From Rozella allomycis CSF55 (taxonomy: Eukaryota), in NCBI GenBank assembly GCA_000442015.1, contig KE561122.1, forward strand, positions 1 through 42,538: DNA of 42,538 nucleotides, in the 5' to 3' direction. Below are positions 1 to 42,358 of the stretch, one piece after another. The stretch's first letter is position 1. Each line of letters begins with the position of its first letter. Below the pieces are notes generated by a model that worked only from the letters and a program-made list of their open reading frames with translations, was not told the origin of the DNA and did not search any database. The position numbers and the translations under genes were made by a program.

Positions 1-2006
1 ATTGAAAGAAATTCAACTTCTCTAATCAAAGATTCCAACAATAGAAATCCTTTATCACTAATTGTTGAATCTTTATTAGAAATTGCTAAAAGTGTAAAAT
101 ATTCCAATTCTTCAAAATATTCAATTTCAATTTCAAAATTTCTTTCAATTTTTTCTGTTTCTATTAATAAATATCTTTCATTCACCAACTCCAATATTGT
201 CTCAATTAAAAATTCATCAATCTCAAATTTTGTAAATTTACAAATAATTTCTAATCTATTTTTAGAAACAAGAAATTTCATTACTGAAGTGTTTCTGAAA
301 AATCTTTATTCCAAATTAAAACATTCTTGGAACAAAATAACACTTTAATACAATTAACAGCTGGCTTATAAAATATCTCATGTTTAGCCAATTTGATTAT
401 TTCATAAATAAATGATGAATCTATTTTAGCTCTCAATGCCCCAGTCTCATTCTAATTGAAATAATCATGAATAGTTTACATAATAAATCAAATGTGGATC
501 TGATTGATATAATTCAAAAATATCTAATAAAACTTCAACTTGATTTTGATAATCAATCTTCTTTTTAAAATTTGTCAATGAATAATAAAATATAATTCGT
601 AATGGCGATGCCATGTATTCATACAGTGCAATCGACGTCGAATTCACCAAGTTTCTGCAACTCTTCACAAGAATTTGTCTGAATACATTATTCGAACTCT
701 CACTTATGGCTATTGGTACAATATTCCTCTTCACAAACGGCGCATTAAACTTGAACGCTGATGACACAAACTCTTGCATCAAACTTTTATCTCCTTCAGA
801 ACTCAAATTCAAATAATTCTTTTCTGGATTAAATATTTTTTCCTAGATTTCTTTTCAATTCATTCTCTTACCGTCAATGTAGGCAAAATATTCTCCATTA
901 TTGGCCCAAGCGGAGACCACGTTGAAAATATAAGCGATGATGCTCTTAGCATGTCAATATACGATTTCAATGCACACTCTTTATTAGACTTTGAATTAGT
1001 CGCTTTATTCAACCCTTTCAAAAATATTTCCTTTAAACATTTATCAAATTCGTTACAAATTCCTTTTTCGATTCAGATAAACTAACAGGCAAACAAATCA
1101 ATAAAGACGATAGAAATGGCCAATATTGATGTCTCTTTTTAGAATTCACAGACGCATCCAAAAATACTTCAAATGTCTCCAACGCATCTCTTTTATTTAT
1201 CCTATCATTTTTACTTTTAAAATCTTCCTGGTTCTCATAGAGTTTACTAAACTCTTCTGGATAGTTCTTTATCCAATTCCAAATCGCCCTCTTCAAACTA
1301 ATGGCAAGCCACAACAAGCCACTCTTTCTCATCTTTTGCGAATACACAATCACTATCTCTAAAAATGCTTCCAATTTCATCCTATCAAATTTCACTTGCG
1401 AAATTATATGGACTCCCCATATTTCTTCAGTTTCATCTGAATGCACCAATTTGGAAACACACTGCAACGACCCTTGGATCTTTTCAATAACAACATTGTA
1501 ATTCATCACACTCAAATAAAATATACATTGACCAGCATATAATCTTATTGTAGAATGCAACGAATGACTGCCATTCAATCTTGGAAACACATCACACACA
1601 TCATTCAAAATGGATTTAGCACAATCATCCCCAATATAATGAACTCCCATCTTTTGCGCATTCATCAAACTGGAACTCGATAATTTCATCAATAATATTT
1701 CAGATTCCAATAACTGGTTATACAACACCTCATTATCAGCAAGCGTTACGGTAATTTGCACATTCAACTGTGAAAGCAAATTATTCAACGCCAACAAACA
1801 ATCTTCAAGATTCTCACCACAAATCCTCAAAAACAAACCAACATCATGCTTAAACTGCACAGAACTTTCAACCTTTGATATACTCTCCTTGCAATTAACA
1901 GGAAGCTACATTAACCCAAACAAAAAACACATACATGCTGCGCTATCTTGTTAATAGCTTGCATAAACAGCCTTCTCGAATCGTGCCCTGGTGACATAAA
2001 GGACAT
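1..2006 (-). CDS. NF1: Neurofibromin/Ira-like RasGAP, N-terminal part (continues off the left edge), multi-exon
   Basis: Spliced MSFMSPGHDSRRLFMQAINKIAQH|LPVNCKE... (intron 1906-1934) joins ORFs 1033-1860 and 465-812 and further exons. Motifs 'AGQCIFYLSVMNYNVV', 'LKRAIWNWIKNYPEEFSKLY' and 'WPFLSSLLICLP' match the neurofibromin N-terminal region as I recall it. Confidence 0.8.
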
Positions 2007-2055
2007 GCAATCAGTAATTTCGATTCCGAAATTTACTAAACACCATTCAAGAAGG

Positions 2056-2776
2056 ATGACAGAAAATGACGAATATGACAATAATACAGTCGATGAAACA
2101 GCAACCGATATTCAGCAAAATCAAGATGATTATAATCTGGATCTCTTGACTTTTCGTGATATTGGGGATCAGGCGCATTGGATGCTGAGTTCAAGGAAAA
2201 TGGGGTTCGGTGTGGAAAATTTACGCGATGATCAGGTTGAAACGTTTTGGCAGTCGGATGGCAATCAACCTCATTTAATCAATATCATGTTTTCAAGAAA
2301 AACTTCGGTTTATGTAATTAGTATATTGTATACTAATACATAGGCGCTGGCAGTATATTTAGATTACAGACAAGATGAAAGTTATACGCCGCAAAAGATA
2401 CTTATTAGGGCCGGTTATACATACCATGATTTACAAGTACTTTAGAATGGATAGTATGATTAGGATGTATGCCAAAAGGAACTTAATGAGCCATGCGGTT
2501 GGACATTATTCCCGTTAAGTGATGATGAACAGTAAACATTTATCGCTTTTAGAAAAAGAATCGTTCAAATCCACCTCATACAAGTTGTGATACTCANTTC
2601 ACCTCATTCAAGTTGTGATACTCACAAACCATCAGAACGGAAGAGACTCCCACATTCGACTGTTAAAAGTACTTGTACCCCGAAAACAGAATTTTGGTAA
2701 TGATGACGAGGACTCCAAAAGTGAACAGATAACTAGAAAATACGAAGAAAGTCAATTTTATTCCATTATCAGATAA
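2056..2776 (+). CDS. APC10: Anaphase-promoting complex subunit 10 (Doc1), 3 introns; assembly N plus duplicated segment at 2571-2624
   Basis: Motifs 'WMLSSRKMGFGVENLRDD..TFWQSDGNQPHLINI', 'LDYRQDESYTP' and 'NHQNGRDSHIR', plus a C-terminal IR tail (…YSIIR*). Confidence 0.95.
2571..2624. other. Assembly artefact: about 25-bp duplication around a single N (2597)
   Basis: cacctcatacaagttgtgatactca N tt cacctcattcaagttgtgatactca; removing one copy restores the APC10 frame. Confidence 0.85.
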
Positions 2777-2823
2777 CCATCATTTTAACACTGAGTGCTC
2801 TGATATTATACAAAAATAAATTA

Positions 2824-3421
2824 TCATACAGTTTTTGATTGTAGAATTAAAGCGACAATTAAACCATATAGACCCAACACTTCAGCAAAAATGAGCATCA
2901 AGACCATTGCCACGTAAACTCGAGATTCTTTAGCAAAATTTCTAACAGAGGAATCTCCCACAATTCCAACAGTCCAGCCTGCTGCAACACCTGATAATCC
3001 TACACTGAGACCAGCTCCTAAATGGGCAGCACCAGATTGAAGAGAATAATTTTGATTTGGCATTACAAACATTAACAAAACATTTCTTTACTTGATCCGG
3101 TAATAAGAACTGCCACAACTAGCCCATAAATACCGATAATACCAGCCATAACAACTGGAATTAACGATCGCATTATTAATTGAGGTTTAAACGTACCCAT
3201 ACCAGCAATACCGATACCTAATATGGTCAAAACATTATTTACATACCTTTTAATAAAAGTTATTTTCGTTACCTGATTTAGCTGTGCCATAGGCCGCACC
3301 TAACGCTAAATACAAATAAAGAACACTGTTTACCACAAAATATCATTGCAAAGGTTGCACCAGCAAAACCAAAAAATGGTGCATAGGGTGGACAGCGTTC
3401 TGTATATTCAAACACATCCAT
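2824..3421 (-). CDS. VMA11: V-ATPase 16 kDa proteolipid subunit (c/c', Vma11-like)
   Basis: Spliced '[66 protein letters not shown]'. Needs a tandem intron (3218-3272) and a GT-TG intron (3066-3091). The c' versus c assignment is less certain. Confidence 0.9.
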
Positions 3422-3612: not shown

Positions 3613-3954
3613 ATGAATCCCCAGAATAACGTCACCGTAAGAGTGATTTTAACAAAATTAAACAGTATCACTCGTATCCAAAATATAACACTGCAACTGA
3701 ACAGAACGGGAACTTGTATAACCGACAAGCAGGCACTGTCCCGAATCTACCGGTCACTTACACAGATTACGTATATCCAAGTAAGCTATATTATTGATTA
3801 ATTAAATAGCTCACGCTAAGGCGAAAAAGGAAAAGAAAGAAGACAATACATGTTTAGGAATGTAAGACGCGTAAATAAAACTAAGAAAAGATTGGCGGGC
3901 GCTTTGTGCTTTATTTGCATAGCAGGAACAGCCGCTATTGGGGGCAAGAAATAG
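3613..3954 (+). CDS. Small CYSTM-like tail-anchored protein, 3 introns (missed by ORF track)
   Basis: Spliced MNPQNNVT|YHSYPKY…TDYVYP|THAKAKKEKKEDNTCLG|ILAGALCFICIAGTAAIGGKK*. Three canonical micro-introns, and a C-terminal 'CL…GALC..C' module. Confidence 0.65.
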
Positions 3955-3994
3955 AATTTTGAAATTTATCAGAACCAGTGTAACAATGAGTGGA

Positions 3995-4799
3995 TTATTT
4001 AATAAAATTGTCTTTATAATTAATCAATGAGGCTGCATCAATATCCAAAAGCCAAGTACTATTTGAATTAATTTCACTAACGATTCCCGCTGGATATTTC
4101 ATTTTCTGGTCTTTTTTAAAAATGTCTTCAATAACCTTATTCTTTGAAGCACCGGTGACCAGAAAAACAACATTCTCACACATTTTTAATGCATTCAAAG
4201 TCAGGGTTATTCTTTTTGGTGGAGGCTTTGGTGAATTTTCTACATAGTCAAGAAATTCAACGCTTCGAAGAATATCATGGTCAGGAAACAGTGAGCAAGT
4301 ATGTCCGTCAGGCCCCATACCTTAATGATAAAAATGTACTTGCAATACCTAACAATGCACAATCAATTATAAGACTTGAACCGGTACATGGCAAGCCTAA
4401 CTCCTTCCATGTTTCCCTCATTTGCCCATAATAGTTTTCGCAAACCTTTTTCGTGTCGTTTAAAAATTCACTATTTATTTTAATGAATCTAAAGGGCTTT
4501 ATATTTGTGGATCCAAAAAGTTCCTGAAAGTAAAATGACTCTTAATGTTTTACGTTATCAATTAATTTTGCATTCGAGTCATCACTATCATTTTCTACAC
4601 ATCTTTCATCTGCCAATAAAATGATCCACTTGGAAAAGTTTTCCTTGTTAACGTTTTTCAACAACAAGGGCAAAGACCCACCAGATATTGCTATAGTAAA
4701 GTAATTTGATTTTTCTAAAGCCTTAGTTTCTAGCTCTTTTAAAATTATTGCTACTCTCTCACAAATCCCTTCTTTCCCTGAAAACACCTCCAATTTCAT
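3995..4799 (-). CDS. PGLS: 6-phosphogluconolactonase (Sol3/PGLS family), 2 introns
   Basis: Motifs 'FTIAISGGSLP', 'LADERCV…SN', 'LLGMGPDGHTCSLFP' and 'SPKPPPKRITLT'. Confidence 0.95.
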
Positions 4800-4954: not shown

Positions 4955-5424
4955 ATGTCGGCACCACCATTTAATCCAGAGCACCAGGCATATCCAGTAA
5001 ACATTATAAACTCTCATAAATAGCCGGGACAGAATTATCCTTATCCACCGCCGTCTCAACCACCGCAAAATTATCCTGCTCACCCATATCCTGGGCCTCC
5101 TCAGCCGTATACAGGCTATCCACCACAACCAGGATATAATGGACAACCACCGTATCCACCTCAACAAGGTTATCCTGGTCAAGCACCGTATCCACCGCAA
5201 CAAGGCTATCCAGGACAATATCCCCCGCCAATGGGCGGTTATCCGCGTAATTTATTGAAAATTAAATGAATATAGAGGGACCAAGACCAGTTGTTGTACA
5301 AGCTCCAGCTAATTCGCAGAAGAGTGACGACGGATGTCTTACATTGTAAGTTAAATAGGTTACTTAAATAATTAGTATCATGGGTGCATTATGCTGTTGC
5401 TGTCTAATGAATGCTGTGGACTAA
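4955..5424 (+). CDS. Pro/Gln/Tyr-rich CYSTM (cysteine-rich transmembrane module) protein, 3 introns (missed by ORF track)
   Basis: Spliced [24 protein letters not shown]…[10 protein letters not shown]…|…[24 protein letters not shown], which is the classic CYSTM architecture. Confidence 0.9.
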
Positions 5425-8877: not shown

Positions 8878-8918
8878 TCAGCTTTTGGTTTCTAGGTCCA
8901 ACTAAAAACAACATAAAA

Positions 8919-10305
8919 ATGGAATTTCATTTTGACGTTACACAAGTTCTCAAACGACCAATAAGTGTTCTTTCGTATGAAAATGATATAAGGATACTAG
9001 AAAAAGTGCCTTCTCGAAAGTAATAGAATAAATTTGACTTTAATTGATATTATTTAGAGCAAATTCAAGAAATTGTAGATGAACTTGGGTACGCATCATC
9101 AAAGGTTATTAATATTGTCATGAAAAATCAAGGCCCAAAAATTAAAGTATCCGATTACCACGTATCACAAAATAAGAGAAAATACTGACCAGAGACTATA
9201 CATTATCAGAGATGAATTTCCGGAAGAAGTTGACAAGGATGATAATTACTATGTACACATGATGAATGCGACTATAAAAGCTAAAGCGAATGATAATGAT
9301 GTGCAACCTGCAGCGGAAATATTCAAAGGTTGCATGAAGGAACTACAAAGAGCTGAATATCATCAAGCAAGCGCCGTATCAAAACTTTTATCTCAGCTTC
9401 CTGGTATAAATAATAACCAGAGATCATCCATTGTTGCCAACAATGTGTCTACAGAAAAATTGTCGGAAACTGGACCAAGAAAGAATATAATACATGGTTT
9501 TTTAAAAGTGGGGACAAAAGTTTTGTTTATATCGGTAAATAACATTCATGATATCTATAGGATGATCAGGGTAGACAACATCAAATCCAGCCACTATGTC
9601 TTTTGGATATATATATTCATGAAAACAGTCAAAGGAAGGGATTCGGGAAGAAACTTTTTGATCACATGCTCATGGTAAGAAGTGTGTTTTAACTGCAAAT
9701 GATGGAAGGAGTTCAACCCTACAAACTGGCATATGATAAACCGTCGGAGAAGATGCTGTCATTTCTTTCAAAGCACTACAATTTGAAGAGTTATCTACCT
9801 CAAGCAAATAATTTTGTTGTATTTAGGGATTACGGATTGAGTTATATGAATTTTGTGTTGAGAAGGGAACCGGCAAGGAAAATGGTTCTGACTGGATCTA
9901 AATTGAATAGCCGGGTAGCTGTCAAAAATATGAAAGTTATGAGTAAAAGCCCGACGAAAAATGTAAATGTATATGTGTGGAGTGATGAAGAGTGTGAATT
10001 CAGAATCTAGTAATCAAGATTTAAGGGCATTGTCACCATTAAAGAATCCCAACTATTTGACAGGAAAATCAGAAGGAAAGTCTAGTTTTTCAACTCTTCT
10101 TGAAGAAGATGATATTAAAAAATCGAGTGGACTGCTTTCTAGTCAAAGTCAGTCTACTGTCAGATCTTCTGTTTCACATTTGCCTGCATTAAGTTTTGGA
10201 TCTAGGGATATTTTGAATGATAAGAGAAAGACTCCATCTACTCCTAAAGAAAAGTATGGACGATTGACTCCATTATTATCAGCAAAGAATAAACGACACT
10301 TTTAA
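8919..10305 (+). CDS. ATAT1: Alpha-tubulin N-acetyltransferase (MEC-17 family), about 5 introns
   Basis: Motifs 'MEFHFDV', 'IVDELGYASSKAQKL..PITT', 'GFLKVGTKVLF', 'PLCLLDIYIHENSQRKGFGKKLFDHML' and 'LAYDKPSEKMLSFLSKHY…PQANNFVVF'. Confidence 0.95.
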
Positions 10306-10334: not shown

Positions 10335-12187
10335 TTATAATTTTGTGACAAAAATTTCGTCAAAAGGTTTTTCTTGATGCGCTTTGATTAACCCTTTGGA
10401 ACCAAAGGCCAAAATTTCGTAAAATGCAGTGGCGGCACTCTTTTTATTCTAAACTATTACAGTAGAGAATGAATTACCTTTTCAACAACTAGAGATGAGA
10501 ATGGAACGGTCTCATTTTGGGATATTTCAGTATTCAGAATTTCATTAACAATATCTTTTCTTTGATTGTAAATTGATTCTTCTTCCTCTTGAAGTTGAGT
10601 ATTCTGAGTAGCTTGACTAAAGATAGATTGAGAAACACTTGGAATCTCAAGATTAGGAACCTGAATTTCATCATTTGGAAAAATTGGTTCATTTATTGCA
10701 GGAAATTCATCAAATCCGCCTAAATCATCGTTAAAATTTGGAATGTTTTCGTTGTGATTTTCATTAATTGGAATGTTTAAATCTATTTCAAAATTTTCTT
10801 TTTCAAATTTCTCTTTTTCATGATTTTCTTTTAGTTCATTTTCTTTCGATTCAAAATTGTCGATTCCCCTAGAAGAAATTTCAGATTCTCTAATTTCTTT
10901 CATTGCTTCTAAATTCTTTTTTAAAGTTTCTTCAATAGTTTGAGTTAATTTATCGTTTAATTCAAAATCTAAAGATGAATAAAAAACATTTGAAGAATTA
11001 AAATTGTTTAATTTGATTGTTATTGGATTAATTGATATTAAATTTAACTTTTAAACTAATTGAATTAAACTTTACTGGCGTTCTAATTGATTTTGTGTTA
11101 CTTTGAAATTTTTTGAAATCTGCAGCTGAAAGTTGTAAAGGTCCAGATTCTTCCATTTTTCTTTTTCTTTGCGAATTCTGACTTTTATTTTGAGAAGATT
11201 TGGGTTTCGCACTTGATGGAAAATTTGTCTCAAAAAATTCATGAGAATTTTCTAAATTTCTTTTCTTTAAATAATCTCACCTTTCAAATTTAATGATAAT
11301 CTTTTAGTCGGAGTAGCTTGAAGGTTCTCTAGTGTATTGTTTTCAACTTCCATTGGAATCAAAGGAATTCTATCAATTACATTCATGATCTTTACTCTGC
11401 ATTATCCATTGGAATTTCCATTGGTGTTTCCATGTCCATATAATTATCATCAAATGGAAGAATTGGTTCAACTGATAACTGTGTAGCTTGGCTTTGGCGA
11501 CGACCTTCTTCAATCTCATCAACAACATCCATTTTGCTTTCTTCTCTTCCAATCATACTAACATCAGAAAAGCCATTCGATACAATGGTCTCCCTACGTG
11601 CCACTTCAACTTCCACTTGATCACTTAAGGGATCAAATTCAAGTGCATCATCCTCAAACGCAAATGCAAAGGGCTCGACAAAACTCACTCTTCTTCTAGT
11701 CTCTTCTGTTATTACAAAATTAGAATTCCTTTATTTTAGTTAATTAATTCTTTAATTACTCTAATAGTTGCCCAAGAACATTTTGGGCTCTATTTTCATG
11801 GTCATCAAGGACCGACAAAAAGGAATCAAAAGATTCTACATCCAAGTTAAATGATGACGGTTTAAATGCCTTTTATAAATCTACATTTTCATTACAAGCT
11901 TGATTTTCATAAACGCGTCATTACAATCATCCAATAAATATTTCGTTTTCCTCCAATATATTTTAACAACACCAAGTAATAAATGTCCAGATATTCTCAA
12001 TGCCACAGGTCCAACAGACTCCTTCAAAATTTCATCTAAATTAATAGCACCATCTACACATACCAACACTCGCCTCTATATCCGTCTGTGTAATTTGCTG
12101 TTTAGAAAGCTTCCTATCCCAGTGCGCTGCTAGCCATATGCTGGAAAGAGCCCCCTTTTTCGTCAAAATCGAATCAGAATAAAACAT
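10335..12187 (-). CDS. RAD21: Cohesin kleisin Rad21/Scc1 (Rad21/Rec8 family), 7 introns
   Basis: N-terminal 'MFYSDSILTKKGALSSIWLAAHWDRKLSK' and 'ALRISGHLLLGVVKIY'; C-terminal winged helix 'KKSAATAFYEILA…AHQEKPFDEI'. Confidence 0.93.
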
Positions 12188-19980: not shown

Positions 19981-20035
19981 GCAAATAAAATATAGTTTGT
20001 CAAATATTGATTTCGTAAATAATTTAAAGCCAAAC

Positions 20036-28137: not shown

Positions 28138-31100
28138 TTATTGACAAATGAAATGGGTTCTTCTTTTGATCCAATGCTTCACAGGAACATCAGAATTAAC
28201 AAGAAAAAAGATACCAACGAGATCCTTTTTAAAAGCAAGACTTGAAAGAAATTCATATCCAAATCCAAAATCGAATTGATGATATTCTTGATACCCAATA
28301 CCAATTGAAGGTTGATCGAGAGAAGACCAGAAAAGGGGACATTTAAATTTCGTGTGAATTCTTTTTGATAGATTCTGATTCTGATTTGTTAATTTCACTT
28401 TTTGGGTGGAAAACTTTTGTGGATTTACAACTGGTTGAATCCAAATCTATTTAATTAATAAAAGTTGGTTACGCAAGGAATTTTGCAATTGAATTCATTT
28501 GATTTGGCGTCTCTCATGTTGCCTCTGCCGAAATCCCAAACAGCGTTTCTTAATGATAAACCACAAATGTAGTATCCTTTGGTGGCTATTGTATTTTGTT
28601 TGGTGGATAAAATATTCGCTTCGAATTCCAGTAACTCCATAGGCTCTTTAGATTGCGTTGAATGATCTTTTAAGAATGCTATTTAAACATAGTGTAGTAA
28701 ATTACCTGCCAAGAGAGGCTCAGGGTGAATCATTTTAGAAAAATCGTGAACAATTGGCCATTCGAAGCCCTGGTGTTTTTGATTGTACCATTCATTAACG
28801 TATTCTAATCTACTGACGAAATTAGCAATCCAAGATGAAAAAGAAAACCAAATATTGCTAGCGAATGGAAAATCACTTTTTAGGAAATTTGGGAAATTGT
28901 CAGAATTAACAGAGTCAACAAATTGATTGATTTTATTTGAAAAGGGAGTGAAAGATCTGATTGATTGTAAAGTTTGTTCTATAATTTCTATTAGTAATTT
29001 TAAGCAAGAGTGATATTTAGTGTAATTGGAATAAATGATAGAATCCGTGCTAGAAGAGATTGTAAATTCAACATTCTTTTGAATGATGCAAGCGCTCAAC
29101 TTTGCAAGCCATTCTTGTAAAATTGGAACGACTTTTTGAACTTTTGATTCAAATAGAATATTAAAGTTTGTTTTTTGAACTGGCAGGATAATTGATAGTA
29201 AATGTAAATATTTAGAAGAGTTTAGAGCATCTAGAGCAGATGAAGCGACTTCTTGTAATCCAATTAAATTTGGAGAGAGTTTTTCAGGTAATTTTTCTAG
29301 AGCGATTTTGATTGTTGAATAATCTTGAGCAGAAATTAGAGAATGATAAAATTCAATTAGAGGATTGAAAGAGATTAAATCGTCTGAAGAATCTTTTTCA
29401 TCCCATTCAGAGGAAATGATTTCAGAGATGAACATTTGAAGAATTTTGAAATCTGATTGTTCAACAATTTTGGAAAAGACAACTTGAAAGATTGGAGAGA
29501 GAGAATCTCTTACTAATTTTATTGCTTGACCTTTTTGATATTTAGATTGTTGGCTGTTGATTGAATCATTTGATGAATTTAAAGCTTCTTCTTCAAAATC
29601 AATTTCTTTTGAATAAAGTTGAATTATTTCTCTTATTCTTTGAATCATTAAAATTAAATCATTCAAAGTAAAGTTATAATCTCTACTAAATCCATAAAAC
29701 TTGAATTGATTTCTTTCAATTAACACAACTAGAAGCAGAAATGATTGAACTAGAATCTAAATAAACAAAAACTAGTTACTTTACCTTTTTCATTACAAAT
29801 TTATTTTGTGAAATTGCATTAGTTAAATGAGAATGAATAAATTCATATAAAAATGAAACTTTTTGTTTAAAACTCAAATGAGAAATTTCCAAAATAGTGA
29901 AATTGCATTTTTCAAATATTTCAACAGAAAAATTAACACTTGCTTTATAATCACAAGACATTAATAACTTAAAATTTGATTTTACTTTTAATGAATCAAC
30001 AATTGCTAAAACTTTATTAATCAAGTCAATGGATTCATGAATATCTTGAAGATACAACCATTTCCCTTTCTCAATGCAATCCATTAATGTTTCATTTAAA
30101 GATTTAAATTCAGTAAATTTAGAAATTAAAACAGATTGAACAATATTCCCCTTTTCATTCTTTTCAGCAATTATTTTCAACGTTTGATAAACATCAATGT
30201 CATTTCTAGTAATAAATAGAAATTGATTTGTTGATGAAATATTTTCATAAATTTTATCAACAAGAGAAAATGATGAATTTTTATTAATGTCACAATTAAT
30301 TCCCTTCAATTCATCCCCTAGTGGAAATTCATTGATAATACTGAAAATTGCCTTTTTGAAACATTCAGGTTTAATTATTCTCAAAACAATCAATTTTTCC
30401 AATTTATTTAAATTTTGATTCGACTTGCCTGGAAAGATACAATTCTCTGAATCCTTGTTACATTGTAATTCTTCCCAACTAGTTTCTTCAATTGGAGTTG
30501 TAGCCTTGTTGGCGTATTTGCTAAACTCTGCAACCAATTTACTAAATTTCTGTAGTTGGCCAAGATGACAAATAGATTCCCATGATTTCTTATCAAGCCA
30601 TGATGCAGCTGGATTCGGTGGTATTTCATTACAAATTACTTCTTTGCATTTTCCATATAACAGAAATTCCCAGTATTCAGATGGAATATTTTCATTTGAA
30701 GATTTAATAGAAATATAAAACATCAAAAGATTAAAAATGGAATATTCAAGCTTAGAATTCAAATCTTTTAATATAAATAAACTAAACTGTTTAAACCAAT
30801 TAGCATCAACTTCATTTGTGAAATTTCTGAAATATTCCAGAAAATTATTTAGATTGAATTTATAGCAAGAATGAATATTTTGTAATTTATTTAATAGTAA
30901 ATAGAATTCAGCAGCAGATTGAAAAATATTTCTCTTCTTTTCAGATCCAGAGAGTTTAAAGAATTCTTTCTTCATGCTTGTTAATTGAATGACTTTTTTG
31001 CGATAATTTTCTTCATAGTGAGCTAAATTGTAAGAAGTTTCAGTGAATTGAGATTTGTCAACATCGCATAGACCAACTTGTCTTAATCTTTCTTCGCGCT

Positions 31101-34100
31101 TTAAATTTTGTTCAAAGTTTATCATTTCAACATACAGATTGGTGTATTCAGTTTTAGCTTGCAAAGAAGATTTGTTTAAATGTTCATTGAATAGTAAATG
31201 AGAAAGATTCTTTTTATTGAAATCTAAAAATAGAATTGAAATTCTTTCGTCTTTGATAAAATCATTTGGAATGGAATTTGAATAAAAGATAGAAATTGGT
31301 CTGAATCCAACTCTTTTTCTTAATAATTCATTGTTGTAGAAATTGTTTATTAAATTTGAATTTATTAATAGCAATTCAGATGGTTTCAAAAGAACATGTA
31401 AATCTTTTAAATCATTTGAAGTTAAATTGTTTAATGGAGAATCTAGACCAAACATTGATAGAAAATGATACAAGCCACAATGGGGGTCTAGAACAAGAAT
31501 TGGTTTAACAGATTTAATGTAAATCAAGATATTTTCTAATAAATCCAAATCAAATTCAACAGTTAAAGTTTTCTGAAATAGATTAACTTTGTAATCTTTC
31601 AAGAGTAGAGAAAGAATAAAATCTAGTGGATCAATGATTAAATTCAATTCATTAAAGATTAAATTTAATTTTTCTCTTATTTGAATTCTAGAGAATGAAT
31701 TGAATTGACCAAATAGAACAATAATTGATTCAACGTATAAAGAATTTGAGAGACAACGAGACAAGAGTTGATTTTTATCTTCAAGTGAATCTTTCCATCT
31801 TTTTATTAAAGAAATTAATTTTTCTGAATTGCTTAAAGTTTCTTGATATATTTTTTCAGTTTCATTTATATTTTCTTTAATTAAATTTTTTCTTTTTAAT
31901 AGATCATCTAAATCTTTTGTTAGATTAGATTTCTTAATTTCTAGAGAATTTATTCTATTTTTTTCATCTTGAATTGAATTGTTTATTTTTTGAATATTTT
32001 TTTCTTGAATTAATAAATCATCATGAATCTTTGAATTGTCAAACAAAGTACATTGAAAATTATAAATAGAAATAATCCAATCTCTCAAACAATTAAATTC
32101 TTCAATAAATTCAACTTGAACGCTACTTTTAAAAAATTCATATTCAAAAATTGAATTAAATTTATTTTTATCATTCTCATTCAAAGTAAAATTTAAAATT
32201 CTTTCATAGAGATTAATTTTATTATTTTCATTAAAGAAAAAACTTAAAAATGAGATTAATGATCTAACATTGGAATTTAATGAATTATTTAAATCTATCC
32301 ATTTTTCAAAACTAATAACTTTCTTTACATTTTTAAATTCATTCATAACAATTATAGATTGAGAATTTATCTTTTTATTGTAATTATCTTTATCAATTTG
32401 ATAATTTTCTAATAATTTATTTAACGAAATTTCCAACTTTTGTTTTCTGATTTCAACTTCTTTTAAATTATCTCTAACAAGATCAATTTGTTTTAAAATT
32501 TCATTTCCTCCAATTGTTATTTCATTAAATTCATTTTGTAGATTTGATAATTGTAATTTTAAATTTGATAAATGTTTTTCACAATCTGTTGCTTTAATTA
32601 AAGATTTCTCAATCATTTCAATTTCTTTTTCAATTGGAATGGAAAATTCTCTATAAATCTCCAATGTTTGAACTTGGAAATTTACTAAATAATCTTCAGA
32701 AATTCCAAATTGAAAAGCTAAATTTTGTTTTAATTAGATTTCAATTACCAACTTGTTTCAACTTTTCATAAAATATGGAAACTAGATATATTTCTTCATC
32801 ATTCACTTGATACTTAGGTTGAATATTTCTCTCCAAATAAATAACCCTGGAATTAATCAGAAAATTCTCTAATGTTTTTGGCTCCAAACAATTCACAAAA
32901 TGAACATTATTTCTAAATTGTTCATTCAACAATTTCATTCCTTTGATTTCAATTCAATTCAATCATTTTACCTTGTTCAATTGGAATTTGTTTATTAGTT
33001 GAAAATGTCTTTATTGCATTTTCTGTTAAATCAGATTCCAATATTTCTGTTATTTCACTTCCAGATAAAAATTTATCAATCATTTCATTCTCTTCTTCAA
33101 CATACACACAAAATTTATTATTAAATGATTTATAAACTATCGAATCAAAACATGAAAACAACACATCAAACGTTAAACCAGAAATATCACTCTTTTGATG
33201 TAAACTATTTTTATCACGCTTATTATTTTGTTCACGATTTTCATTGTTATTGACATCTGCAAGTAATTCTTCTCCACTCATCCCATTCAATTCTTCACCT
33301 ATATTCACTTCCCCATTCTTCACTTCTCCATTCTTCACTTCCCCATTCTTCACTTCACTTTTCAACTCTTTCTCAACTATATCTCTCACATCATTCTCAA
33401 CTCTTTTCAATTCAATTTGACAGATATCACACGCTTTTCCAACACACTCAAAAAAATAATCACAATCCAATTCAACCACCGTAACATTACAAGGGTCAGT
33501 CACCAGCGAATTACAAATATTAAAAACATCCACAGCATTTTCAATACTCAAATCAGGATGATAATTAACAATCTCAGTCACAGAATAGTATTCCCTCTTG
33601 ATCAATATACTATGCGAATATTGATACAAGTAAATAGTTGACTGCCACTCTTGCAACACACTCGTTGGAATATTCAAGTTTTTGCAAAATATATCAATTA
33701 TTTTGTTCTTTTCATTCGTTTGGAATAAAATTCTGTCGAGTAAATCTATAAAGAAAGATTTAATGAAAATATCGTCCAGATTGGAACATAGCTTCAGGGT
33801 TGTATTCAAACTACATAAAACATCATTGAAATTAAATGAATAATACAGATTGTTGTTGAAACAATAAGCATTGGTAGAAACTAGTGAGAATATTTGTAAT
33901 ACACATTGAATCATAAAGTCTATCAAGTCATGGTCATTTGGAAAACTTTTATACAATTTCAATTTTAATCTTTTAGAAAGTGTTGAATTTACATCATCGT
34001 GCATGTTAATTATTATTGAATGCGTTGAATTCAAAAAGTCTAATTCTTCACATGTTGCATTTGTGAAATTTACAAAAATTAAATCTGATTCAACGCTCTT

Positions 34101-37100
34101 TATTCTATTGTCATCAATGATAGTTTTATTATTAATAAACGGAATGATATTATCATCAATCGTTCCATGTATATTCAAAATGGAATTCTTTTCAAAGAAT
34201 ACAGATTTAGCTCCAATGGATGAAGCCTTTTGAATAACAATATCAGACAGTGAATCTAAACATGTATAATCATCATCATTTGAATACACCTGTTGCTCTT
34301 TATTATACTTTGCATGTGATACTTTAATTGGTATAGACTTACACTTGAGTGCTTTGATAACCTGTTCAGCCAATACAAAAGATTCAGGACCAATAAGAAC
34401 AATTCGACTACCGCTTCCTTTTAAAATTCTAGACAGATAAATCAACTTTGAAAAGTCATTAAATTCACTTTGAAAATCATCAACTTCATTAAACTGAGAA
34501 TGATCAGTTTCTCTCTTTTCATTAAACAATGCCCAATCATTTATAGTTTCATCATAGAAAATATCAAAAACAGTAGAATCATCTCTTGGAAGACAGGGGA
34601 ACAGATTATTCCAATCAATAACTGAATCAATTCTAATTAAATTTCTTTCATGGTACAATGTTTTGAAACCTTTATCGAATATTCTGTTTCTTGTATAATC
34701 AACCCTTGCACCGAATGACCATATAATGGAAAATAGACAATTAGCGATTATCCATTTTTTCTGTTCGTTAATTGTTAATCTTTCATAGTTTTTGCCAATG
34801 TTGTTGCAGAGAGATGCGAAAATTGATTTAAATTGAATGAGAACAGAGTTTTGACAGAAATTTGATAAGCCAAGTTTAGAAGAGGAAATCAAGTCATCCA
34901 CTTGACTCAAGAGAATGTTTATTAGTTTATTGCTAAAGTTTGAATTGTCTAGAAGAATTTGATTGGAGTTTATTAGAAAATTTATTATTGAAGATTTGAA
35001 GTTTGATTGATGAATGAATAGCCAAGGAGACTCAAAGTGTTTGGTTAGAGAATCTACATCAGATAAAGAAGTAATGGATGGTAACATTGAATCATTAATA
35101 CAGTCATCAATCAAACTGAAAACCAGTTCATTATCTTGAATTTCAAATACTAATTTAATTCTCTTCTTTGATATAAATGATTTAATCTTTTTGAAAGAAT
35201 TTGCATTAAATTTTCCAGAAATATGAAAGATACAATCAGAGTCTCCCAAATCAATTAAAAGAGAATTTATTATTTCAATAATATTGTGAACCCATGGAAT
35301 TTCTGTAATTGTATTTAATGTTTGTTTTATCAATGTTGATTTAAAAGAAAATGGTTCACCAAAAACAAAAGAAATTGAATTATTTGTTACTAGTCTTTTT
35401 ATTTCACTTGAGTAATCCATTTTAGTTTCATTGAATAAAGTTTCATTGATAGAATTTGAATACAATTCATTAAAAATATTTAAAGATTTCTCAATATTTG
35501 AAATTGATACTTTTGATTGTAAGAAATCTTTTAGAGAAGAAAAAATTAAAGAATTTTCATCAAGATTTTGATTTTTATTTGTGATTATTTTACTTGTTAA
35601 TTCAAAAAGAAAAAATCTATTTATAGAAACAGAATTTTTCAAAATAAAATGAAAAGAAATTAATTTTCTAGAAATTGAAAAACTATTTTTAAATCCATTA
35701 ATTTTCAAGATCATTTCAATTAGATTAAAATAATCTAGATCTGAAAAATTTAAAATTCTTAGAAAATTGTTAAATGAAGGATCTATAGATTGATCTATTT
35801 CTTCTTGATGTAAAATTATTGCGTGATCTAGAGAATATTTAAATGTTTCATTTTGGAATTTTATAGAATCTGATCTATTTAAATTTGCCATTGATAAAAT
35901 CTTTTTCAACGCCAACAATGAATCTGAATTTTTATTCAAAACATCATAATTAGAGTTATGCTTGAGAGAATTGTAATTTAAATCATTAGAGTTTATATTA
36001 GAAAATATACCTTTGATAACTAACCATTCCTTTAACATTAATGAACCTTGTTATACCGATAACAAATGAATTTACCTAACATTAATGTTTATTGCTTTGA
36101 TTACCTTTGATGTAATGCATGAAATTGTCACTCTTGTGGTTTAAATCTAAATAGATAATAGATCTTCCAGTAACAAGTGATAATTCATTCAACAAAATTT
36201 CTGTTAAATAATTTGTAAAGAATTACCATTTCCTTTGAATACAAACAATGAATTTTCATGAATAGATTCAAATAGATCAATAGATGATTTTTTAAAAGAA
36301 AATAGATTTGGAACAATTTTAATCATCTGATTTCCATATTTAATTTGATTAATTCCAACTTTTACATAAATTTCATTTTGATCTGTTGAATACACTTTAA
36401 TCATTGTTAACCATTCTTGTTCGATATACCCTTTATTCAACAAAATGTGAATAAATGTTTCAACTAGATCCAAATTATATTCAATCAATGAAATCAACAA
36501 TTGATATTTGATACTTAAAGTTGAAATGGTTGAAGTAGCTGAAATGGAAGATTCATTCAACTCTACACTTTTACTACCTTCACCTCTACTATTAATTCTT
36601 TCAATTTCTTCTTGAAGGGATTCTCTTTCTTTTTGTAATCTTCTCTTGAATTCTTTAAATGAATTGATATTCTTATTCAACATTAATTGTTCATACTCTC
36701 TTGTTATTAAGAAATTAAAAGACAAATAAATCATTTGATAAGAAAATTTAATAATCCAACTTCCAAACCCTTTCTCTTTACATTCAACAATCACTCCAAC
36801 AGATTCTCTCTTTATATTATCTTTAATACATTCATCTAATCTATTAATTAAATCAACTAGATTATATTCAAACACTATTGGTAATTTAAATTCAAAATAT
36901 TCAAAACTAATTATTCCTGTTACTATAAATAAATCACTCGTCAAGCCACTTTGACCTTTCAAGGGTAACAAATAAGATTTATCTTCAAATTTATTTGATT
37001 TCAGAAATTCTAAATATTCTTCTTTTATTTTACAAACAACAATTCTACAATCAAAAGGAAAACATCCATTCAAATCAACCAAATAGAAAGTTTCATTCAA

Positions 37101-40100
37101 TCTAACAAATCTATCTTTTGCTCCTTGAAATGAAATTATTCTTCCACACAAATTCATTATTTCTTCATCTTCTTGAAATATCAATCTTGGACATTTCTTT
37201 TTCATCTCTTGAATAAACCCATGCATTTTATTATTCAAACTTTTAGCTTTATTCAACGTTTCTTCAATATTAGAAAATATATCTTGATTTTGAATAAACA
37301 CCAAACAATTCCCAACCCTTGTTAAAATATCAAAATATGAATTATAAAGTTTTTCAATCAAATTAAATTCATTCCTTATTTTATCTCTTTCTCTCTCACT
37401 CTCCATTTGATAATAAAATACACTAAATAGATTAGGAAATATATTGGAAATTTCAATCAAATTCATCAAGATATTCTCAGATCTTATCAATTTAATATTC
37501 AACTGACTCAAACTCATTTCTCTACAACTAAATATCAATGAATTCAAAAGCAAAAGAATTTCACTAGAATTTTCAATACAAATTATCGATTTGTTCTTAT
37601 TAGAACTTTCTTGCTTGTTCAGATTATTAATGGATCCTTTAAGATTATTTACACTCTTCTTGAGTTTTCTACTTTCATCCAACTTTGATTCCCCTCTCAT
37701 TTCATTTACTTGTTTAAACTCTATTGTCATATTTCTTAACTTTGCTTTAACAATGTCAGCCTCTTCTTGTATTCTAGCTTCCATTGTTGCCATATCACTC
37801 AGTTCTACAATCATAGATCTCTGCAAGTCTAAATTCAATTCTATCAACTCTGCCAACGTCAATGTCTTTATTTTATTCACAGTCAAGTTCAACTGGCTCT
37901 TTAACAAGTTCCAATGCTTGTCTCTCAACTTTTCATTTCTCAATCCTCTAATCAAAAACAAATATCTAGCAAAGTTTTCAACTTTAATTCCAACAATTTT
38001 TAACGTCTTGTCCGGTCTTTTCACTTGTAATTCTCTAGCTTCAACTTCATCCAACGTCTTGCGAAAATTTCTAATCTTGCTTTCTATTTCTTCTATCGAA
38101 AGATAATAAAATAGCGATTGCAACCATTTTGGTATACTTTGCATCACATCACTCACTAAATTCCAAACAATCTCCAAAAATAGAAAAGTATTCAGGAAAT
38201 CTTCCAATTCATCAAAATTGGTTTTATCCATTTCTAAATATTCCTCCCTCTCATTAACAATCTTAATGCTCTCATATACTTTATCATATCGCTCTCGTAT
38301 TTTATTAACAATCATCGCCATAAATTCATACTTGCCAACTTCATCACAGGGAATCACATACTCCAAAATCTCTCGTTTAAAATCATTTAAACTTGATTTA
38401 ATAAACTCTTTATCAATCTCCAACTTTTTCATCAAATCTCTGCGAAAACTCTCCACATTGTCTTTTGCTACAGAATACAACATGCCAACCTTTTGTGGCC
38501 ACTTGAATACTTTCCAATACAATTCATTCAATTCCTTGTTCATTTCAAGAGAATTATTTTCAAAAATATCATAAATCATTTTAATCTCGTTGAATTCTTC
38601 TTTTAATACATCCACACTCTCATTGCTATATTTATCCACATTGGTTTTTAACATTTTCCATTCTTTACTCTCTCTAGGCAAAATATCCATCCCTTTATAC
38701 ACATTTGAATAATACTCATCCATTTTCATACAAATACCATGCATTCTGCTTGACATCTTTTTGATTATAAAATCCAACACTGCTTGGCACTTTTTGATCA
38801 ACATCTTTTTAATTTTAAAACAATCAACTTGCAAGGGAGCCATACTAACAGTATCACTGCTCAAGTATAAAATTTTCGTTCTTGCCTTTGAGTACCTCTG
38901 GGCCATTGCATCCAATTCTGTCAACTTTAAATTGTCCTCCTTTATCTCATATTCCAAAATAAACTCAAATTCCTTGTATTCACTCAACATTTGCTTGACT
39001 TTCGGATAACAACTTTTTAACACTTTCAATAGTTCATCGGAACCTTTGCTCATGAATNATCGGAACCTTTGCTCATGAAATCCTCGATTTCTTCTTCTTT
39101 AAAAGGCTTCAGGTAATTTACGCTTAACCCTATGTGATTAAACATTACATTTTCTATATTCATCACACATTCTCTGCAACTCTCCAATGGTAAATGAAAT
39201 AACTTTATCAAAGAATGCTCCAAGGCTGCAAAAGTGGGCTTTAAAACTATAGAAGAGAAGGATTTTTCGCCTTTATTCATTCCGTCTGTTATCCCCTTTT
39301 CTGGCTCACGACTTTGTATCACACCAATTGTAACTGTAAATAGAACAGGAACACTTTTCCCCTCTGATAATGAACTAATAAATGTATGCACATTATCTAA
39401 TGATAGATCAGAGTCACTCAAACTAACATTCCCCTCTTTAATCTCGGTTCTAATCATCATTAACGACAAAAAATAATTGGCCGAACGCATTATCAATGTT
39501 CTTACTTGAGTCTCAAACACAAAATTTAATAGCCTCAAATAATTCTTCAAACGACTATTCTCAAACGCCCTAACGCTTTTTGGATTCAAATCAAACGCTG
39601 TATTCAACTTCGCATAGATGATTTCCAATATACTTCTTGGCCATTTCAGACTCAACTTGCTTTGTATGCTCTGTGCATGCATCGTCAATTTTTCTTCCAA
39701 ATAATAAAATGACACTGGAAAATTGTTAATCTTGAAATAGAAAGTTTCCTGTAAAAATATTTCCTCAAAACATTTTATTATTGAGACTGTCGCCTTTTGT
39801 ACATCTGAATTAGATAAAAACATGTGAGAGGAAATTTCATGTGACACTTTGTTGAACTGAGATACCAAGTATTCTTTAAATTTTGGCTCTTTGACTTGCA
39901 AGTTGTCAGCGGCTATCACAGCGAATTTGCTTATATTTTCAACTTTGCTTTTCTTTTTCTCCTGGCGTCGATCATTCTCACTCTTCTTCATGCTAAAAAT
40001 ATTATCAATCTCACATTCATAAAAACATTCTCTCAATATTTCTTTCCCTCTTTCTGTCAATCTTTTCACACCAATCCTCTCTTTAATCCCCTTTTTCATA

Positions 40101-41339
40101 TTCTCAGAAATGGTGCAATATCCTTGATCAGGTTGTTTATCTATTTCTTGAAGTAGTTCCATTTCAGCAACGAATTGGTCGCGCAATTTGCTAGCGTTTT
40201 CCAATCTTTTATAGAACAAATCCCTGTTATCGTGCTCAAAAAATAAATTTAATCTTTTAGCACTCTTGATTACACTTGAATTAGTCCACTGTATTTTGAA
40301 AAGCTGGCTGTTCTTGTCATATCCTAGCACCTTACATGGGTACCATTCCCAACTTCCACTTCCATTTCTATGGTCAAAATATCTATTACTTTAATGGTAA
40401 ATAATTACCTAGAAAATGCTAATATACCATCCTCACCATTTTCAAGGGCATCTGACAGGACTTTGACTGGATCAATAAGTTCTTGTTCTGGATCATCGAA
40501 TAAATCTATAGAAACATCTTTTATCTTTATTTCAGACTCACGAAAGATGGATGACTTAATATTCAGCTTTGCTAAAAATTCTTTCTCTGTCTTGGCCTTG
40601 TACTCCGGAATATCCACAACTCCCGCCAACTGTATGTCATAATTCATACTATCTGAACAATCCTTTTCATGTATCATTTTTTTAACGTCCATAGAAAGGG
40701 GAGGAGCTGGGGGAACAATCGTATTTGCATTTCCCATTTTTGAAGTGATGTAATCATCAATAGATTCAAAATCGGTTATCATTCGTAAACTACTCTCTAT
40801 CTTGTTTGTGATTAATATTATACCTTCTTTATTTGACACGAATGCTGTTGATGGGCGTTGCTTCATTAGTAATGATTCCGCCTTTCTTAAGACATGGCTT
40901 TTGGGTACACGACTAGAATAAGGTCGGCCCTTAAATTTGAGTAAAGGCTTATTATTATTGGATTTTTCATCTCGATTATCGGATAATTTATCAGAGCATA
41001 TATCATGAACAAATCCAAGAGCATATGTACTTGATGATTGAAACGTGCTTCTCCAACCTTCCTTATTTTTTGTCCTGGCTTCTATTGCGGTTGATGGTCT
41101 CTTTTTCTTTCCCAGATACTCTTTTTCCACCATATTCAATGCGTTTTCCCAAGCGCTGGAATCAAATGTGACAACTCCCCGTGTAAATGAAGTTGCGGGC
41201 CTAGATTTCTGAGAGGTTTTATCTTGGGCCTTATTTTTTTCTTCCGACTTTGTCATTCTTGACATTAAATGTTTGTTTACATCCTCCAGAAGTGGAACAT
41301 AAATTGCCTGTCCTGGCAAATATGTTTCTTAATAGCCAT
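28138..41339 (-). CDS. Highly divergent axonemal-type dynein heavy chain (DNAH1-like N-terminus, degenerate motor), about 10 introns; assembly N at 39058
   Basis: N-terminal 'WYPCKVLGYD…KRLNLFF'; tail/linker 'LRNEKLRDKHW' and 'CPRLIFQEDEEI'; stalk coiled coils; 'NPAASWLDKKSW', 'GYYICGLSLRNAVWD' and the C-terminus 'HWIKRRTHFICQ*'. The start is uncertain: ATG 41339 needs a 23-nt intron, otherwise ATG about 41256. Confidence 0.9.
33297..33356 (-). repeat. 15-bp coding tandem repeat (about 4 copies, EVKNG) inside the dynein gene
   Basis: Repeated (c/t)ccattcttcacttc units on the + strand; translation EVKNG-EVKNG-EVKNG-EVNIG. Confidence 0.9.
39036..39080. other. Assembly artefact: about 21-bp duplication around a single N (39058)
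   Basis: atcggaacctttgctcatgaa(t) N atcggaacctttgctcatgaa(a); this falsely splits the dynein ORF (MSKGSD appears twice). Confidence 0.88.
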
Positions 41340-41430
41340 TAAGTCAGACGAAAGTATTTTTAAATAAAATTTATAGAAATATTTATTTATGCAAGAGCTA
41401 AAATGGTTAATTATTTGCGTATACATTAAG

Positions 41431-42358
41431 TTAGGTATCTTCCAAAGATGAACACTAAGTTATTTTTCTTTAATTAAATATACCATTATTTCAAGAAAGC
41501 AATTATGAGAATTAAAGGGTACCATAAATTGAATTGACAACGTCCCTTGTTCACTGAAAGTAATAGCAATCTTATTGGCTAAAGTGGCAATTTTATTGCA
41601 GTATGAAGCGAGATTAGTAAAATAGTACCAACTTAGCTACATAAAACTTTGCTTACCTTTGCTCAAACCTTGCCGGTACTATCACTCCATCAATATGTGG
41701 ACACGATCGACGAATTTCAATCTTTTGAAGCAACGATATACTCTTACTTTAGTTGAGCCAGATGGTCCTATACCTTCTAGAGTAAGCGAGATATCTCCTG
41801 GTGAGAGGATAAATGTGAGTATGTCAGTGTTGACAGGAATTTCACTGATCAATTTTTTAAACCAATCCGCCTATGTAGCTTTTATAAGTCTATGTACTTT
41901 ACAAACAATTCGGCAATAATTATCAGGACGTTCTATGTCAAAATCAATATCATTTTCGTCAAAAGTGCATAGGTCTGCTGAACAGACACAATGATCGTAC
42001 TCGCATCTATTTACAATCAATAAATTCTTTACGATAAGAATACATCCGATCCGGGTCCTCTCCAGCCCATCCTGAAAGCCCCTAGAGATAGAACTCCCAT
42101 AGATTCGTAAAATAATGTCAGATTGCAACAAAATTTATTTTCGCATTCTTCTCCGTTGTAAAAGTATTCATCGAACAAGTTATCTTCCAGAAAGACATTC
42201 AATACAAACGAATTAGATAATTTGGTGGACAGTTGAAGTCCTCTTTCATTGCAACGGAACGTAAGTACATCATGTTTTGTTTTAGTTTGAATGGATTTTA
42301 AGATTGATATGAGAGGTTTAGATTTGTTCAAAGAAGCAAGAAATACCAAATCCTCCAT
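41431..42358 (-). CDS. RAD1: 9-1-1 checkpoint clamp subunit Rad1/Rad17, 5 introns
   Basis: 'FLASLNKSKPLISILKSI…CNERGLQLS…VFLEDNLFDEY', 'MGWRGPGSDVFL' and C-terminal 'KIAITFSEQGTLSIQFM'. Confidence 0.85.

Follow-up and report, generated by a model that had tools for sequence, protein, structure and literature searches.

Ultra-short introns with a putative donor-anchored choice of the 3' splice site, candidate paired micro-introns and a putative TG acceptor in Rozella allomycis CSF55

In this study, we analysed the introns in a stretch of 42,538 nucleotides (nt) of Rozella allomycis CSF55 (GenBank assembly GCA_000442015.1, contig KE561122.1, positions 1 to 42,538), referred to here as the window. 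The window is AT-rich nuclear DNA with a guanine plus cytosine (GC) content of 25–37%; the standard genetic code reads through it and open frames extend up to 1126 codons. A 314-codon frame at 16714–17655 is 97% identical to the public R. allomycis CSF55 protein of the eIF2 gamma subunit. Pfam matches identified genes for APC10, 6-phosphogluconolactonase, a large ciliary Ig-repeat protein, ATAT1 (Mec-17), RAD21, Mob1 and eIF2-gamma, and furthermore a LITAF-like protein, an RRM protein, an FHA/BRCT protein, a DRG GTPase and a very divergent AT-rich dynein heavy chain. The gene of the V-ATPase proteolipid c was identified through homologue searches. Scans of the window with Rfam and for tRNAs gave no matches. 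The genes carry about two to seven ultra-short introns each. The present report concerns the length of these introns, the position of their splice signals, two sequences that appear to consist of two abutting introns, and a putative 3' splice site ending in TG.

An initial annotation, made from the letters of the window, had reported about 90 introns that fall almost all between 26 and 31 nt. Intron length was assessed with a codon-usage Viterbi model of positions 1–28650, in which each run admitted GT..AG introns of a single 6-nt length bin, under a flat penalty and with no motif or composition term. The bin of 26–31 nt gained 87.1 log-odds with 45 introns, compared with −0.1 to 17.5 and 3–12 introns each in the 11 other bins between 8 and 79 nt, which confirms the reported length range. 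The control dinucleotide pairs TG..GA and GA..TG reached at most 21.0 in any bin. When introns of 26–31 nt were already allowed, no extra bin between 8 and 91 nt contributed more than 7.3, and the bins 32–37, 38–43 and 44–49 added 1.9–3.0. With a flat prior of 12–150 nt and an intron-composition term, 42 of the 64 predicted introns were 26–31 nt long; picks of 74, 48, 124, 133 and 146 nt from this run were false and turned out to be ordinary units or intergenic DNA on closer modelling. The class of 26–31 nt is real and dominant, and lengths of 32 to about 50 nt are not needed. Several other approaches were discarded. With a self-trained splice-site matrix the prediction diverged to 592 false introns, as the invariant GT and AG columns cancelled the penalty, and a stricter matrix under-predicted (34 introns). 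The matrix alone yielded too sparse a length histogram, the codon-usage Viterbi model with a flat intron prior skipped small exons, and a flank-coding score was swamped by in-frame deletions of multiples of three within long open reading frames (ORFs).

A curated set was assembled with a search limited to 24–33 nt and corrected by hand where homology demanded it. It comprises 68 GT-AG units with a mode at 29 nt (12 of 26 nt, 14 of 27, 12 of 28, 19 of 29, four of 30 and seven of 31 nt), a range that is not independent evidence by itself because of the search window and the hand corrections. The junctions are supported by homology for 28 of the 68 units and by reading frames only for the other 40. 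Another 43 AT-rich GTA..AG candidates of 26–31 nt lie outside the curated set, several of them in unmodelled genes. Since stretches of this kind occur in unmodelled regions (24810–24952, 41398–41483, 42007–42032 and 3637–3809), the true number of introns is probably closer to 90 than to 68, and the original count is plausible. With a median below about 30 nt and a very narrow spread, these introns belong to the ultra-short regime.

Removal of the curated introns restores the reading frame and the colinearity with homologues, as expected of U2-type introns. GT is found in all 68 units, which is uninformative since the search required it; the informative part is the bias to GTA and GTAA. A GTA donor is present in 62 of 66 tallied units, with GTAATT, GTAAAN and GTATGT as donor hexamers. 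The base before the acceptor AG is T in 40, A in 21 and C in five of these 66 units, and their GC content is 24%. The interiors consist of 41% T, 38% A, 10% C and 11% G. They show no pyrimidine tract and no rise of pyrimidines ahead of the AG, as had been noted originally. U12-type introns are defined by AT-AC or GT-AG termini, an extended donor and a TCCTTAAC-like branch. The curated introns do not show these features, and no such branch box was found in the 66 sequences.

In all 66 curated units tested, the earliest AG with its G 25 nt or more away from the donor G serves as acceptor, an agreement to which the search window contributes. AGs ending at positions 18–24 are bypassed in ten introns. 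In seven of these the early AG is out of frame with the AG that is used, so that there the frame itself, and not the length window, rejects it. A later AG within 33 nt is found in six introns and is out of frame in four. The last intron of RAD21 (10449–10477, minus strand, 29 nt) contains AGs ending at 24 and 29 nt. The first is out of frame with the downstream exon, and the exon that follows the second matches positions 16–50 of the 55 positions of Pfam Rad21_Rec8 (E-value 6.2e-9). The original observation that the AG at 24 nt is skipped for the one at 29 nt thus holds, but it reflects ordinary exclusion of an AG and no special rule. It is the behaviour of any spliceosome that scans from the branch point and meets an AG too near to it. 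Two further introns on the plus strand carry tandem acceptors 3 nt apart, with AGs at 24 and 27 nt that are both in frame (25728–25754 and 23649–23675). Potentially, these could yield isoforms that differ by one residue, and the distance rule would predict use of the AG at 27 nt.

The position 23 nt from the donor (A+23) is an adenosine in 49 of the 66 units (0.40 bits, binomial p 1.6e-9). The adenosine is present above background in each length class from 26 to 31 nt (12/12, 7/12, 9/12, 12/19, 3/4 and 6/7). In the final set it occurs in 51 of 68 units (75%), compared with 34% of 212 decoys, i.e. GTA..AG stretches that satisfy the same first-AG rule. Alignment of the 66 introns at their 3' ends gave no comparable column, the best being an A in 35 of 66 at position −6, and no strong hexamer surrounds A+23 in the curated units. 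No other base inside the introns is conserved. As no positional information was used to select the set, A+23 is an independent signal. The enrichment validates the curated set and shows the internal landmark to be measured from the donor. The introns thus combine an adenosine at a fixed position with a weak branch consensus. This adenosine is the probable branch point, anchored to the 5' end. The initial annotation had described only a degenerate branch motif; the lack of a strong hexamer agrees with this, and the fixed adenosine had been overlooked.

Two sequences longer than 31 nt appear to be composed of two complete units. In the V-ATPase c gene (minus strand), homology forces the removal of 3218–3272, a 55-nt sequence made of 3247–3272 (26 nt) and 3218–3246 (29 nt) with a central AG|GT. 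When all 55 nt are taken out the alignment to homologues is gapless, and when one unit alone is taken out stops arise and the score is about 47 bits. In the dynein heavy chain gene (minus strand), reading frames force the removal of 36047–36104, 58 nt made of 36076–36104 and 36047–36075 (29 nt each). Its removal joins ORFs of 964 and 1033 amino acids, and keeping either half introduces a stop. Each of the four halves begins with a GTA donor, carries an A between +23 and +25 (at +23 in both halves of the V-ATPase c pair) and ends at the first AG that is 25 nt or more away from its own donor, and in both sequences a 3' site abuts a 5' site inside the removed sequence, the configuration of a zero-length exon. 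Because the first-AG rule would use the central AG, both pairs should leave in two steps via such an exon, and stepwise removal is the most likely course for both. A central AGGT is expected by chance at about 0.002 per position from the interior composition, which corresponds to about 0.01 for one intron and about 1e-4 for the two together.

In total, 42 candidate AG|GT double units were listed in the window. Two of these candidate rows are the forced cases above, one is one of three readings of its junction and one was refuted. The ambiguous one lies in a gene of unknown family (21571–21638, minus strand), where a 29-nt GT..TG intron (21610–21638), a pair of 31 + 31 nt (21577–21638, 62 nt) and a 68-nt GT-AG intron (21571–21638) compete, with no homologue to choose among the three. 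The refuted pair, 4321–4375, has a first half that is coding up to the exon of the phosphogluconolactonase domain, and the intron is 4321–4348 only. A near-tandem arrangement was found at 19969–20029 (plus strand), which can be read as introns of 27 nt (19969–19995) and 31 nt (19999–20029) separated by the 3-nt exon TTT, or as one 61-nt intron; both readings are in frame. The claim that the only clearly longer introns are two exact pairs therefore stands for the pairs of 26 + 29 and 29 + 29 nt, but 19969–20029 and 21577–21638 are long candidates as well.

The V-ATPase c gene also contains the best case of an acceptor other than AG, which had not been listed originally. Besides a 28-nt GT-AG intron (3306–3333, minus strand), supported by the gene model and the profile, a homologue profile places a 26-nt intron at 3066–3091 (minus strand) with the donor GTAAAG and the end TTG. 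With this intron removed, the protein scores 260.1 bits against a profile of 99 homologues, without gaps from profile positions 4–158 to residues 7–161. The GT-AG alternative 3018–3091 scores 207.7 bits and deletes 16 conserved residues. With four homologues in tblastn, 32 nt lie between the flanking exons, where the homologues have exactly two residues. After the donor, the next AG comes at 74 nt, which is 48 nt past the TG, so this TG is not an alternative to a nearby AG. As judged from homology, an excision of 26 nt that ends in TG appears to be required here. This U2-type intron with a TG 3' site is identified by homology only, and it is a much stronger case than ATAT1. The correctly spliced gene (2824–3421) encodes 162 amino acids, and among 3794 matches to its last exon no Rozella protein of at least 154 amino acids was found; the public Rozella model is probably truncated or missing. 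A metagenome scan with a V-ATPase c exon returned 80 loci, none above 72% identity, and thus no Rozella relative for a comparison of intron ends.

The remaining evidence shows that AG is clearly preferred. Of 15 non-AG dinucleotides tried one by one as additional acceptors, TG brought the highest gain (10.3, five introns). A TG at 25–26 nt is passed over for an AG at 29 nt in three curated introns, so the AG rule is not generally relaxed, and TG appears to be at most a fallback where no AG is in reach. All 68 curated units end in AG, the V-ATPase c intron 3066–3091 ends in TG, and three further TG candidates are ambiguous. The original proposal of a relaxed AG rule is hence retained for one TG that homology requires, and given up as a general statement.

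That proposal had been based on ATAT1 (8919–10010, plus strand, PF05301), in which a TAG at 38 nt was reported to break the frame and a TTG at 27 nt to keep it. With 9020 as donor, an intron up to and including the TAG (38 nt) indeed runs to a stop, and one up to and including the TTG (27 nt) keeps the frame. The candidate intron 1 is 9020–9046 (27 nt, GT..TTG, A at +23). In-frame rivals on the same strand are a 54-nt GT-AG intron (9006–9059) and two introns of 26 and 40 nt (8975–9000 and 9020–9059). Against a profile of 30 homologues the TG reading scores 243.6, the 54-nt intron 241.7 and the 26 + 40 nt model 239.5, and the TTG is not forced because the three models differ by only 2–4 bits. 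The TG reading has a typical donor, length and A+23, whereas the 54-nt reading has a poor donor and violates the first-AG rule. The other introns of the gene, supported by profile and Pfam, are 9105–9132 (28 nt), 9535–9560 (26 nt) and 9682–9708 (27 nt, GTGTGT donor), and the exons match PF05301 positions 42–68, 91–128 and 129–172. The last of these introns has a 27-nt GT..TG rival at 9675–9701 with a much better donor (GTAAGA), A+23, a protein of equal length and 2.7 bits more against the homologue profile. The public Rozella ATAT1 model (P0241, 333 amino acids, 8919–10305) is without the conserved N-terminus, whose coding sequence starts at 8919, and its longer canonical introns skip two conserved segments; the tiny-intron structure seems to defeat automatic annotation. 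A word-index search for ATAT1 homologues returned this public model only, and the homologues used here came from an exhaustive search.

Taken together, it is probable that splicing in Rozella relies on a measuring mechanism anchored to the donor, which would combine a branch at A+23, use of the first AG, paired units and TG as a fallback. In such a mechanism U2-type introns would begin with a donor that is almost always GTA (GTAA or GTAT), and a weakly specified branch adenosine would follow the donor G at a fixed distance of 23 nt (±1). The 3' site would be the first AG that ends at least 25–26 nt from the donor, 3–8 nt past A+23, giving introns of 26–31 nt only. If the first AG within this short reach is always taken, a sequence longer than 31 nt could not be removed whole. 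The 55- and 58-nt sequences would then be two complete units abutting at AG|GT and would be removed by two splicing events via a zero-length exon. If an AG within reach is missing, a TG at the same position could apparently serve, as in the 26-nt intron of V-ATPase c. Sequence and homology establish the length class, the first-AG rule, A+23, the need to take out the 55-nt and the 58-nt sequence in full and the need for an excision of 26 nt with a TG end; from these we infer that A+23 is the branch point, that the pairs leave stepwise and that TG is used in the RNA. A more far-reaching version can be put forward only tentatively and is perhaps somewhat less likely than not to hold: the spliceosome would measure rather than read, placing the branch about 23 nt from the donor almost regardless of sequence, taking the first AG within about 8 nt or else a TG, and resolving everything beyond a hard limit of about 31 nt as recursive chains through zero-length or 3-nt exons. 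Several points weigh against a donor-anchored mechanism. In introns of 26 nt, A+23 leaves just 3 nt to the 3' end, a very small distance for a branch point, and the TG intron of V-ATPase c itself is without A+23 and has TTAAT at positions 17–21, yet A23 is found in 12 of 12 curated 26-nt introns. As extra acceptors, TA (8.9) and AA (5.6) come close to TG in rescuing the same problematic loci, so that V-ATPase c is the only case that homology ties to TG. The search window of 24–33 nt built in some of the 66/66 agreement with the first-AG rule. Furthermore, the scaffold is a draft with two Ns inside short duplications, and the analysis covers 42.5 kb only.

First-AG scanning from the branch, with skipping of AGs that are too close to it, is textbook spliceosome behaviour. 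The introns might therefore be minimal without being measured: a deletion bias would have driven them to the shortest tolerated distance between 5' splice site and branch, normal first-AG scanning would do the rest, and longer introns would be spliced singly. The 55- and 58-nt sequences would then be single introns, or neighbours whose shared exon vanished, and the central AG|GT would be without mechanistic meaning. Textbook scanning fully explains the RAD21 intron, a fixed branch adenosine with a weak consensus is known from the 15–16 nt introns of Stentor (reported in the available text of PMC9505925), and the choice of AG over a nearer TG in three introns fits as well. A lower bound and a ruler cannot be told apart from sequence alone; the first-AG rule and A+23 support the original claim that distance from the donor sets the 3' site, but not its distinction from minimal-distance scanning. 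What speaks against mere minimal introns is the sharp upper edge, with so little gained by the bins just above 31 nt, and the central AG|GT that divides each of the two forced long cases into complete halves; the chance of such an AG|GT in both is about 1e-4. Moreover, on this explanation too, the central AG (at 26 or 29 nt) is the earliest one after the A23 of the first unit and ought to be used. We regard this explanation as rather unlikely, and far less likely still is that the non-AG and paired cases are artefacts of base or indel errors in the draft, of a pseudogene copy or of wrong gene models. Such errors do occur: each N lies in a direct duplication of 20–25 nt that disrupts a coding region, the plainly wrong public model P0241 indicates that gene models are error-prone here, and canonical alternatives exist for ATAT1 intron 1 and for the junction at 21638. 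However, the V-ATPase c gene is otherwise intact and gapless over 155 profile positions, and an error would have had to strike exactly the acceptor A of one among about 70 introns. Of the two pairs, that of 55 nt is fixed as an excision by the same alignment and that of 58 nt by two ORFs of about 1000 amino acids each, and neither needs a sequencing error because both are canonical GT-AG throughout. The donor-anchored mechanism thus remains the reading that we favour.

Tiny introns are best known from ciliates such as Stentor (15–16 nt), Paramecium and Nyctotherus, which share with Rozella the narrow lengths, GT-AG termini, the lack of a pyrimidine tract, a weak branch consensus and a fixed A. 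In Stentor, the branch A is given at position 10 or 11 in more than 95% of introns, and the available text of that study mentions neither abutting pairs nor TG ends (PMC9505925). Unlike the ciliates, Rozella is a fungal relative with the standard code and introns of 26–31 nt, in which the distance from donor to A is fixed and that from A to the 3' end varies between 3 and 8 nt. Microsporidia, the sister lineage to Rozella, have introns of similar length (about 23–30 nt in Encephalitozoon), but according to the text available to us they have very few introns with strong 5' splice site and branch motifs (PMC6349667). Rozella is reported to have about 2.5 introns per kb in the accessible part of another study (PMC8476143). 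Whelan et al. described two putative Rozella S23 introns of about 30 nt without conserved motifs, as far as the available text goes (PMC6349667). In a Joint Genome Institute (JGI) paper, again as far as its text was available, median fungal intron lengths range from 29 to 197 bp (PMC8042348), and the minimum of 29 bp probably belongs to Rozella. Myxozoans and dicyemids are parasites with median introns of 22–27 bp, but they are animals; the available portion of the same source, a 2026 survey of ultra-short introns, names ciliates, Microsporidia and Dicyemida as lineages below 30 bp and does not mention Rozella (PMC13644364).

Recursive splicing via exons of zero length is known from the ratchet points of Drosophila and from two cases in S. 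pombe, where an AG|GT abutment inside an intervening sequence allows its removal in two steps (available parts of 10.1101/006163; 10.1101/226894). There it is optional and splits long introns of 336 nt to many kb, whereas the Rozella sequences are 55–58 nt long and their subdivision, if removal is stepwise, would be obligatory because of the length limit. The stwintrons of filamentous fungi, as described in the text available to us, are also complex intervening sequences removed by consecutive splicing, but in these a nested internal intron interrupts the donor, branch or acceptor of an external intron, and the Rozella units abut with each of them complete. The human TG 3' splice sites of Szafranski et al. 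(2007) share the GT donor, the TG terminus and the U2-type intron, but according to the available text they are alternative 3' sites (PMC2374985); the TG of V-ATPase c would be the sole productive, constitutive site of an essential gene. In summary of what is already known, Rozella introns of about 30 nt have been mentioned in passing, and a fixed branch A, TG sites, recursive splicing and stwintrons are known elsewhere. A published account of a donor-anchored length rule, of paired micro-introns or of a TG acceptor in Rozella was not found in a search that did not include supplements or the 2013 genome paper (James et al.). The pairs and the TG-ended intron would be new if RNA data confirm them. 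RNA sequencing data of R. allomycis exist in private hands; T. Y. James is thanked for them in the acknowledgements of PMC13393502.

How a spliceosome chooses branch and 3' sites in introns with almost no sequence information is an open question, and work so far leans on ciliates. If the interpretation given here is true, Rozella, a relative of fungi that is rich in introns, would offer an independent system in which the A is anchored to the donor, the first-AG rule is strict and intron length has a hard upper limit; it would be easier to compare with yeast and with Microsporidia, in which splicing has nearly collapsed, than ciliates are. What a length-limited mechanism directly predicts is the occurrence of paired micro-introns and, in an essential gene, of a TG acceptor. 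In the more far-reaching version, obligate recursive splicing of tiny introns and a constitutive non-AG acceptor in an essential gene would be normal in a basal fungal lineage that is sister to Microsporidia. Since public Rozella gene models are affected (ATAT1 P0241 and V-ATPase c), phylogenomic and gene-content studies may inherit the errors.

The other curated introns are located as follows. The RAD21 gene model (minus strand) contains introns at 12036–12063 (28 nt), 11870–11895 (26), 11729–11759 (31), 11370–11395 (26), 11252–11280 (29) and 11048–11075 (28), and exons 1 and 2 match Rad21_Rec8_N positions 1–41 and 44–86. Mob1 (minus strand) has introns at 12631–12657 (27) and 12471–12499 (29), with exons that match Mob1_phocein 2–53, 62–101 and 105–170. 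The DRG GTPase gene (minus strand) is interrupted at 27939–27967 (29), 27732–27760 (29), 27585–27612 (28), 27019–27045 (27) and 26868–26895 (28), with exon matches to MMR_HSR1 positions 11–48 and 50–111 and to TGS positions 4–35 and 37–60. APC10 (plus strand) contains introns at 2314–2343 (30), 2437–2463 (27) and 2532–2558 (27), the last two read by eye, and matches ANAPC10 21–74 and 77–106. In the 6-phosphogluconolactonase gene (minus strand) the introns are 4524–4553 (30) and 4321–4348 (28), and the matches are Glucosamine_iso 4–81 and 136–225.

On the plus strand, the RRM protein gene has introns at 23475–23503 (29 nt), 23649–23675 (27, with the AG at 24 skipped), 23865–23891 (27) and 24459–24484 (26). 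The FHA/BRCT gene has one at 25222–25249 (28) and one at 25728–25751 or 25728–25754 (24 or 27 nt), where the TAGTAG tandem acceptor allows both in frame. The gene of a proline-rich protein has introns at 4997–5023 (27) and 5247–5275 (29). Frames only support those of two genes of unknown family at 17911–17941 (31), 18914–18943 (30) and 19197–19225 (29), and those at 13232–13260 (29), 13484–13509 (26), 13922–13947 (26), 14392–14420 (29), 14561–14589 (29) and 14848–14874 (27). On the minus strand, frames only likewise support 15846–15873 (28), 22180–22210 (31), 21176–21201 (26), 21013–21043 (31), 20895–20924 (30) and 20727–20754 (28). A minus-strand gene cut by the window end contains introns at 1906–1934 (29), 1031–1056 (26), 843–871 (29), 452–479 (28) and 256–284 (29).

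For eIF2-gamma (plus strand), a profile of 73 homologues places introns at 16388–16416 (29 nt), 16483–16509 (27), 16687–16713 (27), 17190–17216 (27) and 17655–17683 (29). This five-intron model was the best of six (726.1), and alignment of the public protein (P0001) to the window shows five gaps. Keeping the intron 17190–17216 costs about 8 bits. This intron is in frame and stop-free, and its retention would add nine residues without truncation; 18 curated introns have lengths divisible by three, and of these it is the only one clearly without an in-frame stop.

The dynein heavy chain gene (28138–41256, minus strand) comprises more than 4000 codons and gave weak Pfam matches only (DHC_N2, AAA lid, D6 and Dynein_C). 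Its single introns are 40383–40408 (26 nt), 36201–36226 (26), 32941–32971 (31), 32718–32748 (31), 29757–29784 (28), 28679–28705 (27) and 28447–28472 (26). The GC content of the gene is 25–26% (30–38 kb), well below that of the adjoining genes (31–37%), and a short KNGEV repeat is found near 33270–33320. Two Ns (39058 and 2597) lie each between the copies of a direct duplication of 20–25 nt in the dynein and APC10 coding regions (39044–39066 and 2567–2620). These duplications look like scaffold joins with duplicated ends and not like biology, and the reading frames are disrupted there; an apparent 23-nt intron at 39044–39066 was rejected as the 20-nt duplication around an N. At the right end of the window lies a probable checkpoint-clamp-like gene.

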